The notes under the pieces are model-generated. The model searched no databases, was not told where the DNA came from, and saw only the letters and a list, made by a program, of their open reading frames with translations. Shown here piece by piece: positions 3,745 through 14,631 of a DNA stretch of 64,000 bases. The translations under genes and the position numbers were made by a program. The stretch is from Candidatus Aenigmatarchaeota archaeon (GTDB lineage: Archaea; Aenigmatarchaeota; Aenigmatarchaeia; CG10238-14; SCSR01). The stretch spans positions 32,001 through 96,000 of the forward strand of contig JAWCSL010000001.1 in assembly GCA_039090665.1 (NCBI GenBank), given 5' to 3'. How positions within the stretch are numbered: position 1 is the first letter of the stretch; the number at the start of each line of letters is the position of its first letter.

Positions 3745-3851
3745 GCTGGCGTGGATTAGCCTGGCTAAATCGCGGCGCTCATAGCATCTATGAGCTTTGA
3801 TAAAGGATGAAAGAAACGCCGAGATCGCGGGTTCAAATCCCGCCGCCAGCA
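3745..3851 (+). tRNA. tRNA-Met(CAT), elongator type, with 32-nt intron at 37/38 (3784-3815)
   Basis: Acceptor GCTGGCG/CGCCAGC, anticodon stem CGGCG/CGCCG, CAT at 3780-3782, T-loop GTTCAAATC; G1-C72 rather than initiator A1-U72; splice motif is relaxed, not a strict BHB. Confidence 0.9.
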
Positions 3852-7682: not shown

Positions 7683-8082
7683 AGTCCTAGCCGTAAACGA
7701 TGCCCGCTTGGTGTTGCAAGCTTCTCGGGAGCTTGCAGTGCCGAAGCGTAGGTGTTAAGCGGGCCGCCTGGGGAGTACGCCCGCAAGGGTGAAACTTAAG
7801 GGAATTGGCGGGGGAGCACACAAGGGGTGGGCGTTGCGGTTCAATTGGATTCAACGCCGGAAATCTTACCAGGGCCGACGGCAGGATGAAGGTCAGTCTG
7901 AAGGGCTTACCAGACGAGCCGAGAGGTGGTGCATGGCCATCGTCAGCTCGTACCGTGAGGCGTGCGCTTAAGTGCGTTAACGAGCGAGACCCACACCCCA
8001 TGTTGCTAACTGCTTCTCCGGAAGCAGTGCACTCATGGGGGACCGCTGGCGATAAGCCAGAGGAAGGAGTGGGCGACGGTAG

Positions 8083-8170: not shown

Positions 8171-8451
8171 GTCCGTATGCCCCGAATGCCCTGGGCCACA
8201 CGCGACGCACAATGCGCGCCACAATGGGATGCGACCCCGAAAGGGGAAGCAAAGCCCCTAAAAGCGCGCTCAGTTCGGATCGAGGGCTGTAACTCGTCCT
8301 CGTGAAGCTGGAATCCCTAGTAAGCGAACGTCATCATCGTTCGCTGAATACGTCCCTGCTCCTTGCACACACTGCCCGTCAAGCCAATCGAGCGGAACTC
8401 CATCGAGGCTTGCGATGAGCAAGTCGAGTTGGAGTTCTGTGAGAGGGGCTA

Positions 8452-8557
8452 ATCTTGGGGGTCCAGAAAAAAATAATATGAAAGAATTGGCTTGACTCTG
8501 ATGTGATGATGAGATGGAGGTGAGTTGATTGCTTGTATGGACCTCCCAAGAGCCTAA
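8452..8557 (+). ncRNA. 16S BHB intron 3 (106 nt, between A1492 and A1493) containing a four-box C/D sRNA
   Basis: GGGC/GCCT helix, TAA and AAA bulges; removal restores GGGGCTAAGTCG. Confidence 0.92.
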
Positions 8558-11972: not shown

Positions 11973-12037
11973 AGCGATGAGCTTTGTCTTTCTCTGCTGA
12001 CAAAAAAGATGAAGATGTGGACACCTTGTGAGCAAGC
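11973..12037 (+). ncRNA. Putative box C/D sRNA A in 23S leader
   Basis: ATGAGCT-guide-CTGA-linker-ATGAAGA-guide-GTGA spacing; guides match 23S only with G-U pairs. Confidence 0.55.
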
Positions 12038-12080: not shown

Positions 12081-12141
12081 GGTTGATGATAACATTTATT
12101 CGCCTGAAAAAAGATGAAGAGCGAACTGTCTATTTGAAACC
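12081..12141 (+). ncRNA. Box C/D sRNA B in 23S leader
   Basis: GGTT/AACC terminal stem, TGATGA, CTGA, ATGAAGA, TTGA; 8-bp guide to 16S 7293-7300 and 10-bp guide to 23S 15193-15202. Confidence 0.8.
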
Positions 12142-14181
12142 ATAAGATGACACTACCACAGGATCAAGGAGGTCACTAAGGCCTAACAAGCTGACCCCAC
12201 TTGGTGGATAGCTTGGCTTCGGAGCCGAAGAAGTACGTGGCAAGCTGCGATAAGCCTGGGGTAGCCGCATGCAGGCGTAGATCCCAGGATCTATGAATGC
12301 GAATCGCTGGCTTCGGCCAACTCCGAAAGGAGGGGGAACGCGCTGAATTGAAGCATCTTAGTAGGCGCAGGAAAAGAAATCAAATTGAGATGCCGTTAGT
12401 AGGGGCGACCGAAAGCGGCAGAGGGCAAACCGAACTGGTTGGCGAAGAGCCAAACAGGATGTGGAGTTGTAGGACCTGTGTCCTTCCTATCCTAGCCGAC
12501 CTGAAGTCTGCTGGAAAGCAGCGCCAAAGAGGGTGATAGCCCCGTAAGGGAAGGCTAGGAGGAAGATGGCAGGTATCCTGAGTACCATTTCCTGGATGGG
12601 AAGTGGGAAGCTGGGTGAATTAACATCCAACCCTAAATACTCCCGAAGTCCGATAGCGAACTAGTATGGTGACAGAAAGCTGAAAAGCACCGCGAAAGCG
12701 GGGTGAAAAGAGCTTGAAACCAAGTGGGGATAGTCAGACACGGCCCGGAAGGTGCTCCTTCGAATGAAATCCGAAAGGAGAGTAAGAGAAGGAGCTTACA
12801 GGGTCGTGTCGTCCGTGCGGAAACACGGGGCAGGGAGTTTGTCTCAGTGGTGAGGTTAACTTGCTTTCACAAGGTAGCCGGAGCGAAAGCGATTAGCCCG
12901 CAACTGTTCTTTATGGACAGTGAGGGGCAGGGTATGAAAGTGCCTGAAATCACTGGGACAAGACCCGAAGCCAGGCGATCTAACCCTGGGTAAGGCGAAG
13001 TCCCTCGAAAGGGGGATGGAAGCCTGCTACCGGTGCTGAGTTACAAATCGCTCGGGTGACCTGGGGTTAGTGGTGAAAAGCCTAACGAGCCTGGCGATAG
13101 CTGGTTCCTCCCCAAATGCACGTCAGTGCAGCCTGGTCGGAGGTAGGCAATGGGGTAGAGCTACTGATTGGAAGGTCAAGGACCGAAAGGTTCAGCCTTC
13201 CTGTCAAACTCCGAATCCATTGCCACCTGAGAAGACCGGAGTGAGGGTGCTGGGGTAAGCTCGGCACTCGAAAGGGGAACAACCCAGCCTAGGGTTAAGG
13301 TCCCTAAATGCTAGCTAAACGCTGAAGGGTGTCTGAACCCTCAGACAGTAGGGCTGTAGGCTTAGAAGCAGCCATCAGATAATAAGTGCGTAACAGCTTA
13401 CCTACCGAGGGTTCGGGCCCCGAAAATGGAAGGGACTAAGCTAGCTACCGATACCCTAGACCGCGAAAGCGGGGGTAGGGAGGCGTCCTGCATGGGCAGA
13501 AGCCTCTGCGTGAGCAGGGGTGGACCGTGCAGGATTGAAGATCCTGCCGAAAGTAACAGCAAAGTTAGGTGAGAATCCTAACCACCTGAAGCCTAAGGGT
13601 TTGCCAGCAATGTTGGTCAGCTGGCAGTTAGCCGGTCCTAAGGGTGCTCTTAACCGAAGCACTCGAAAGGGAAAGCCGTTAATATTCGGCTGCCATGGGG
13701 ATACGTGCGGCGACGCAAGCCAGTTTTCCGACGCTTCGGGATAGGCAGACGCAAGCTAACTGCCGAAGTGAGCGGAGTCTCTTAATGAGGAGAAGCTCAT
13801 GAAGGCAGGAATGGCTCCTCGTATGAGGAGTTCTGCTGATTCCTGGAGCCCGTGAAAAGGAAAACTGGAAGGATTCCCCATGACCGTACCGAGAACCGAC
13901 ACAGGTAGGCTTGCCGAGAAGGCAAAGGTGTGTTGGGAGAACCCAGCCTAGGGAAATCGGCAAGTTGGCCCCGTATCTTCGGTAGAAGGGGTGCCTGTTC
14001 TCTCGCAAGGGAGAGCAGGTCGCAGTGACAAGGGGGAAGCGACTGTTTAACAAAAACGCTGGAGACCGCAAGTCCGAAAGGATGTGTACGGTCTCTGATG
14101 CCTGCCCAGTGCCGGTGTGTGAAAGCCCGGTTCAACGGGAAGAAGCCCCGGCAAACGGCGGCGGTAACTCTGACCGTCGTA

Positions 14182-14391: not shown

Positions 14392-14545
14392 GTGTTGTGG
14401 TAAGGTTGTGACTGCATAGAGTAGGTAGGACTCGCTATTAGGCTGAGGCTTCGGCCGAAAGCTGAGAGGAAAGTGTAACACTACCCTTTCGCAACCTTAC
14501 CGCTAACTCGAAAGAGGACAGCACCAGATGGGCAGTTCGGCTGGG

Positions 14546-14631
14546 AGTCTAGAAGTCTAAATGAGGAGTCCCTTAAGTTATGATTTTTTATGATTAAGGG
14601 CATACGAACCGAAAGGCTTCTAGACCAGCAA
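14546..14631 (+). ncRNA. 23S BHB intron 2 (86 nt, P-loop, after ~G2252) containing a four-box C/D sRNA
   Basis: GCTG/CAGC helix, GGA and AAG bulges; removal restores GCTGGGGCGG. Confidence 0.93.

Follow-up and report, generated by a model that had tools for sequence, protein, structure and literature searches.

The 32-nt intron of an elongator tRNA-Met gene in a Candidatus Aenigmatarchaeota archaeon is probably a half-size C/D guide RNA with a single K-loop, which would direct the 2'-O-methylation of C34 in its own precursor before splicing. The gene lies in the window, a stretch of 64,000 nucleotides, and the host genome comprises 620 kb in 15 contigs, with 34% G+C and about 90% completeness. 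A self-guiding function had originally been predicted for this intron from the letters of the window, and the comparative evidence, which reaches well beyond a single intron, supports such a function. The evidence consists of the anatomy of the intron, its conservation, the covariation of guide and K-loop, a constant register on the target, two competing folds and the genes for fibrillarin and Nop5.

The tRNA-Met(CAU) gene, intron included, occupies positions 3745-3851 of the + strand (Rfam RF00005, 53.1 bits). It was missed by ARAGORN at default settings; with introns allowed, the program recognised a 32-nt intron but mislabelled the tRNA as Ser, and the intron borders, 3784-3815 after position 37, were set by hand. 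A reading of the cloverleaf by hand gave a 5' exon (3745-3783), a 3' exon (3816-3851), an acceptor stem (3745-3751 with 3844-3850), an anticodon stem (CGGCG 3773-3777 with CGCCG 3817-3821) and an anticodon loop in which C32, U33, C34, A35, U36 and A37 correspond to 3778-3783 and A38 to 3816, all on the + strand. The molecule is an elongator tRNA-Met, neither an initiator nor a tRNA-Ile2, because its sequence has G1:C72 and a normal T-loop and lacks the GGG/CCC anticodon stem, because TiaS (PF08489) gave no match in the genome in a search that was positive in four control archaea, and because a tRNA-Ile(UAU) gene is present (contig C8, 29712-29804).

The borders of the intron (3784-3815, + strand) agree between ARAGORN and homologous introns, and a shift by one nucleotide to 3783-3814 leads to an identical mature tRNA. 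The first element on the same strand is a spacer, GCAUC (3784-3788), which caps a guide hairpin in the calculated folds and varies in sequence and length among relatives. It is followed by the guide UAUGAGC (3789-3795; N+8 to N+2, counted upstream from the D'-like box), a single spacer base U (3796, N+1), the D'-like box UUGA (3797-3800), a loop UAAAGG of variable sequence (3801-3806) and the C'-like box AUGAAAG (3807-3813), which begins with the R-U-G-A core and places its bases 5-6 opposite bases 2-1 of D'. The guide is the exact complement of the target strand GCUCAUA, tRNA positions 31-37 (3777-3783, + strand), and G3784:C3788 is able to give the hairpin an eighth base pair. U3796 has no partner in the target and a possible one in base 7 of the C'-like box; the base at N+5, G3792, pairs with C34 (3780). 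At the 3' end, two A residues and A38 make up the splice-site bulge (3814-3816, + strand), and G3813 (n-2) can pair with C32. The intron tail, AAGAA/A with the slash at the splice site, is common to most canonical-position introns of the host genome. On re-reading of the sequence, the intron and box positions of the original prediction were all correct, as were the claimed complementarity of TATGAGC to GCTCATA and the placement of the fifth base upstream of TTGA opposite C34. Terminal boxes C (RUGAUGA) and D (CUGA) were found neither in the intron nor in about 45 nt of each flank, and Rfam placed no C/D family on the intron at E-values up to 10.

The complementarity to the anticodon loop is not merely the helix of the splicing motif. 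A bulge-helix-bulge fold with the correct splice sites in 3-nt bulges takes advantage of other pairings, namely C32:G3813, U33:A3812 and 3785-3788:3806-3809, with two mismatches between U33:A3812 and the last helix. This fold is calculated at -6.1 and, under constraint, at best -7.9 kcal/mol, compared to -11.4 to -12.4 kcal/mol for the guide hairpin and -14.6 kcal/mol for the unconstrained optimum that contains the hairpin. The two structures are mutually exclusive. The splicing fold draws on part of the C' box. The helix between positions 31-37 and the guide buries the 5' splice site and is not the 4-bp helix with two 3-nt bulges of the splicing motif. An intron between positions 37 and 38, a guide against its own anticodon arm and a guide pairing that excludes the bulge-helix-bulge fold thus occur together in this gene.

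Boxes and guide are kept among relatives. A DNA search with the tRNA-Met gene gave a match in 98 of the 117 genomes of the order, and the 30 best loci (L006-L035), which represent seven families of the order and were picked by likeness to the query, were compared. The guide-box module is present in all 30, in introns of 29-40 nt. Throughout these loci the guide reads ATGAGC, except for GTGAGC in L008 and ATGAGT in L032, the latter being matched by A31 and U39 as a compensating change. The N+1 base is T in 29 introns and C in one. The D'-like box reads TTGA in 23 loci, TCGA in three, CTGA in two and ATGA in one, and the deviant intron of L022 has lost the upstream GA (AACATGA). Leaving this intron aside, the GA of D' is kept everywhere, the UGA core of the C'-like box is kept in 30 of 30, and drift in sequence and length is seen in 5' spacer, loop and tail. 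Fully canonical boxes are found in L035 (CTGA with ATGATGA); L025 and L026 have TTGA with ATGATGA, and L023 and L030 have TTGATGA. In three congeners (L010, L013 and L014, from genomes G080, G086 and G083), the tRNA-Met gene is interrupted not only by the K-loop intron but also by an insertion that separates D-arm and anticodon stem, and ARAGORN wrongly takes the three for Phe genes with an intron of 35-58 nt.

As judged by its guide and boxes, the tRNA-Met intron belongs to a family that spans at least eight tRNA types. In the host genome, six introns contain the module: those of Met, Lys(UUU), Gln(UUG), Leu(CAA), Trp(CCA) and Cys(GCA). Loci of relatives add introns of Arg(UCU) and Glu(UUC). 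The isoacceptors with C34 in the host genome, Lys(CUU), Gln(CUG), Glu(CUC) and Arg(CCU), are intronless according to ARAGORN. Forty further loci were taken from BLAST matches to the 3' half of the Met intron and are therefore selected by likeness. For the analysis of the register, 65 of 75 sequences were parsed (Met 29, Arg 15, Lys 9, Gln 5, Glu 5, Leu 1, Trp 1), leaving out the Cys intron of the host genome, L022, L041, L050, L054, L056, L065, L070, L073 and L075. In all 65 introns, for which the parser demanded at least 5 bp in register and which stem from relatives that are not mutually independent, N+2 lies opposite position 31, and hence N+5 opposite position 34, across seven tRNA types. 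The distance from guide to D' is fixed at one base in the same 65 introns, and the guide duplex measures 6-10 bp. Pairing between guide and anticodon loop was scored in 430 of 455 cells in register, compared to 145-215 when the register was shifted by -1 to +4. The pair at position 34 is U:A in 34 introns and C:G in 31; positions 31, 34, 35 and 36 display 2-6 pair types each, with three Watson-Crick types at position 35. In its predicted pairing, the guide covaries with its own anticodon loop from one tRNA type to the next. The Lys and Arg duplexes extend by 2-3 bp into the intron at its 5' end and would therefore be specific for the pre-tRNA.

The tRNA-Trp and tRNA-Cys introns of the order were inspected separately. 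Matches to tRNA-Trp were obtained in 49 of the 117 genomes, and 29 of 30 loci could be parsed. These introns, 25-48 nt in length, share the guide TGGAGC and the same single-K-loop module, with D' mostly CTGA, CCGA or TTGA and C' AUGAAGA or AUGAGGA; the shortest of them (25-26 nt), like some Arg introns (26-27 nt), hold little beyond spacer, guide and K-loop. Matches to tRNA-Cys were obtained in 28 of the 117 genomes. Of the 16 loci looked at, three were unparsed, 12 have the module, and the intron of the remaining one (L103), 18 nt long, is unrelated. The partner of the Cys guide consists of the last two intron bases and positions 38-43, and N+5 faces C39; position 39 is also the second site of the known tRNA-Trp intron guide (PMC4033218, available part). 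Family f1 has GTTGGTCT against AGACCGAC and family f6 has ACTGGTGT against ACACCGGT, so that two compensating double changes distinguish the guide duplexes of the two families. Each intron has one K-loop and one guide, and the bipartite two-guide form (C34 and U39) was not encountered.

Other insertions in tRNA genes differ from this pattern. A tRNA-Tyr(GUA) gene (G000:C11:20207-20320) contains a 42-nt intron of another kind, outside the module, with a GUGC/GCAC hairpin between CUGA and GGUGA and the 3' end CAGA. The genes for tRNA-Arg(UCG) (C9:6248-6333) and tRNA-Ser(CGA) (C4:13015-13108) have introns of 11-12 nt that lack boxes and end in the AAGAA/A tail, which suggests that the tail of these box-less introns is a shared 3' splice-site context. 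In tRNA-Thr(CGU) (G000:C12:15936-16020), a 12-nt insertion, GCTGAGATGAGC, is located 5' of the anticodon stem and has CTGA directly abutting GATGA.

The K-loop was tested on 119 sequences, from which 106 distinct introns were parsed and counted once each; L075, L099, L100, L101 and L103 failed. C' was defined as the first UGA after D', without any choice of the best fit. In the 106 introns, among which kinship remains, the pair D'1:C'6 is U:A in 76, C:G in 22, A:U in one, U.G in six and C.A in one. It is thus paired in 105 of 106, 99 of these being Watson-Crick pairs, as against a mean of 87.3 after shuffling, and none of 5000 shuffles reached 105. N+1 and C'7 are pairable in 85 of 106 introns. 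Pairing of D'2 with C'5 occurs in 71 of 106, a count that 539 of 5000 shuffles reach as well and that does not exceed chance. The D' variants are TTGA, CTGA, TCGA, ATGA, CAGA, CGGA and CCGA, in which GA is constant except in L022; most D' boxes read UUGA, not CUGA, and most C' boxes deviate from the canonical form by lacking U5 and G6. The gap from the A of D' to the UGA of C' measures 2-9 nt, most often 7-8. D' and C' form an internal K-loop with tandem G.A pairs and a short loop, and their predicted pairing is the pattern of the non-canonical stem of a K-turn, with two G.A pairs, a variable third pair and then Watson-Crick pairs. The tRNA-Met intron can also be read with an alternative C' box, AGGAUGA at 3804-3810, and the covariation of D'1 with C'6, which came out clean in the first-UGA register, favours the box ATGAAAG that had been proposed before. 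A register xxGATGA for this covariation was tried and rejected, as it is undercut by family f3, in which ATGA stands beside TGATGA.

How far these features are from chance depends on their combination. A scan of the genome that counted G.U as a pair finds 177 sites where some NNGA is accompanied, in the register of the intron, by a complement of 7 bp or more, and a loose D'-loop-C' pattern occurs 283 times; because of these numbers, a complement with an NNGA box is weak evidence by itself. The pattern CTCATN{4,16}ATGAGYNNNGAN{2,9}GATGA gave a match in 91 of 370 genomes of the phylum, some of them in families outside the order, and the reversed-pattern control for the strict module pattern gave none in the 370 genomes. 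As a sequence pattern, the composite of guide, D', loop and C' in the tRNA-Met intron is far from chance.

A separate guide for tRNA-Met did not emerge in a convincing form from genome pattern scans of limited reach. A strict full-length C/D sRNA pattern yielded two unconvincing matches genome-wide, and among the 177 chance-level genome-wide matches for a trans guide to C34 none but the intron itself has boxes. The genes for fibrillarin (C3:7968-8627) and Nop5 (C3:8902-9543) are adjacent. Fibrillarin is present in 114 of the 117 genomes of the order, a distribution too nearly universal to be informative in a comparison with that of the module. L7Ae (TIGR03677) was not found in this approximately 90%-complete assembly; all 24 relatives searched, the seven congeners among them, gave scores above the cut-off of the same model. 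A PF01248 match was considered as L7Ae and rejected, as it is L30e, located between RNA polymerase and NusA-like genes. In three congeners, L7Ae lies 10-12 kb downstream of fibrillarin (G082:C1:201502-201852; G083:C1:91285-91635; G086:C2:12704-13054), and the matching position in the host genome falls past the low end of the 25-kb contig C3. An assembly gap is likely to be the cause of the missing gene, because synteny with fibrillarin points beyond the end of this contig. The host genome has a single EndA of 191 aa. Elp3 (TIGR01211) was not detected in the approximately 90%-complete genome, the controls being positive in four archaea. It may be, speculatively, that the usual xm5U34 route is missing from this reduced genome, in which case a ribose methyl group at U34 would gain importance. 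One PP-loop ATPase (PF01171) is encoded at C1:109601-110134.

Together, these features lead to a simple scheme for the putative guide. The K-loop would be made up of UUGA (D'-like) and AUGAAAG (C'-like) with the short loop between them, and the 7-8-nt guide directly upstream of it would pair with the anticodon loop of its own pre-tRNA. L7Ae would bind the K-loop and Nop5-fibrillarin would then dock and add a 2'-O-methyl group to the ribose opposite the fifth guide nucleotide upstream of D', converting C34 into Cm34. Sister introns would target U34 or C34 of Lys(UUU), Gln(UUG), Glu(UUC), Arg(UCU), Leu(CAA) and Trp(CCA), and C39 of Cys. Splicing would afterwards require refolding into the weaker bulge-helix-bulge structure, which uses part of the C' box; methylation is placed before splicing because of this necessary change of fold. 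Protein binding, methyl transfer, the order of events and the action of the guide on its own molecule are what we infer from the sequence patterns. Several features count against a guide. One is the absence of terminal C/D boxes, which would make the RNA a natural half-mer, and work in vitro has found both halves to be necessary for efficient C/D methylation. Another is the length of the Met duplex, only 7-8 bp compared to the usual 10-12 nt. The non-canonical bases of most D' and C' boxes, the chance-level pairing of D'2 with C'5, the lost GA of L022 and the L7Ae gene missing from the assembly also weigh on this side.

Engineered half-mer C/D RNAs consist of one K-turn and one guide and are bound by L7Ae, Nop5 and fibrillarin. 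These are laboratory constructs with a stem-closed C/D K-turn, whereas the introns described here have a natural, conserved K-loop inside a precursor. Artificial RNAs without a K-loop are mentioned as well (PMC7994747). The closest natural parallel is the pre-tRNA-Trp intron (Haloferax volcanii; sR50 in Pyrococcus), which, in the available parts of the sources, also resides after position 37, guides 2'-O-methylation of C34 (and U39) in its own tRNA and displays competition between guide pairing and the splicing motif (PMC4033218, PMC4090602, PMC7994747). Cm34 and Um39 of tRNA-Trp are both attributed to this intron (PMC4033218). Unlike the introns of this order, with a single K-loop, one guide, 25-40 nt and eight tRNA types, the known Trp intron comprises an entire sRNA with boxes C, D', C' and D, two guides and a median length of 65 nt (PMC4090602). 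The target C34 of elongator tRNA-Met and the predicted product Cm34 are shared with sR-tMet, whose product is Cm34 in haloarchaeal tRNA-Met (PMC4033218), and with a Pyrococcus sRNA (PMC7994747); as far as these sources were available, both are encoded by separate genes, have a full C/D architecture and act in trans. Pyrococcus C/D sRNAs are aimed at position 34 of tRNA-Leu(CAA), Leu(UAA), Met and Trp, one of them being the Trp intron (PMC7994747). Um34 in tRNA-Gln(UUG) of S. acidocaldarius is a predicted C/D target, and Cm34 limits pairing to G (PMC7668247). Human SNORD97/SCARNA97 likewise guide Cm34 of tRNA-Met(CAT) (PMC6601510), but these are eukaryotic, full-size snoRNAs encoded outside tRNA introns. 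In the accessible part of a 2014 review, the Trp intron guide is called 'a unique example' (PMC4090602), and no description of single-K-loop tRNA introns was found in the literature searched, which covered few subscription journals.

Other functions of the module have to be weighed against guided methylation. It is decidedly unlikely that the K-loop is real and binds L7Ae without any methylation, so that the protein and the anticodon-masking hairpin would be a device for the folding or timing of splicing or a protection of the precursor. Covariation in the K-loop is silent on fibrillarin, the terminal C/D motif is absent and the C' box is part of the splicing fold, serving as h' helix in Met and, in the short Arg introns, as H strand, so that L7Ae binding could gate splicing. 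What such a device leaves unexplained is the fixed one-base distance between guide and D' in 65 of 65 parsed introns, the register on position 34, or 39 in Cys, both known C/D targets (PMC4033218, available part), and the occurrence of the module in wobble-sensitive tRNAs. Very improbable is a K-loop with no function at all, in an intron family that spread between tRNA genes and whose anticodon complement is a helix needed by a relaxed splicing endonuclease. Pairing between anticodon and intron is common in pre-tRNAs, and the AAGAA/A tail is present even in the box-less 11-12-nt introns. The lone 191-aa EndA would also fit the alpha4-type endonucleases of DPANN archaea, which are associated with disrupted tRNA genes (PMC5829648, available part). 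Such a helix would, however, put the 5' splice site into a stem and compete with the only fold that gives correct sites; box cores are fixed while adjoining bases drift, D'1:C'6 covaries, and no splicing motif requires the pairing predicted in Cys, between the guide and the 3' half of the anticodon stem.

The timing of the reaction may be viewed differently as well. Rather unlikely is a guide that becomes active only after excision, when the 32-nt intron, probably circular, would act in trans on another pre-tRNA-Met or on mature tRNA-Met. Action in trans has been reported for the tRNA-Trp intron guide (Singh 2004, as cited in the available parts of PMC7994747 and PMC4090602), and archaeal tRNA introns are known as circles (PMC7994747). 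On the other hand, the Lys, Arg and Cys duplexes take in intron bases, because of which the substrate must retain its intron, and mature tRNA-Met leaves 7 bp only. Action in trans is a variant of the preferred reading, guided methylation of C34, and no alternative to methylation as such.

If the intron is indeed a guide for its own precursor, a one-sided C/D particle suffices in living cells, which would challenge the requirement for a two-sided C/D and C'/D' particle, and the smallest natural methylation guide would be a functional RNA of about 20 nt with a single K-loop. Self-guiding introns have so far been described, in the available part of the review, for one tRNA (Trp) and with a full-size guide (PMC4090602). 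A broader proposal, for and against which the balance appears even, is that the whole lineage has swapped stand-alone tRNA guides for 25-40-nt introns made of guide and K-loop, each methylating position 34 of its own tRNA, in all tRNAs that read purine-ending split-box codons, with C39 of tRNA-Cys in addition. If this were true, tRNA introns would gain a reason to persist, it would be understood why genomes of 0.5-1 Mb retain them in particular tRNAs, and Nm34 would be predicted in eight tRNA types of an uncultured lineage. The module could also provide a compact, programmable scaffold for site-specific RNA methylation.

Units of similar design are seen in the rRNA genes. A noisy, uncontrolled scan pointed to more D'-loop-C' units within the LSU rRNA and the spacer that separates it from tRNA-Ala (14566-14605, 11983-12024, 12090-12130 and 12120-12160). 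In the same scan, an example of the form ATGA...ATGATTA has a perfect 10-bp complement to the SSU rRNA near 7797, and another of the form TTGA...AAGATGA has 11 bp (two G.U) to the LSU rRNA near 14532. In the SSU rRNA, the tip of helix 44 measures 130 nt (8408-8537), compared to 36 nt in the model, and contains a unit at 8484-8520 with canonical CTGA, a TGTG loop and ATGATGA. Upstream of this CTGA, 11 nt (GTCAAGCCAAT) are a perfect complement of the decoding-site strand at 8378-8388, about 100 nt upstream, with A8381 as the partner of N+5. From its sequence, this unit looks like the one-K-loop guide design inside an rRNA.
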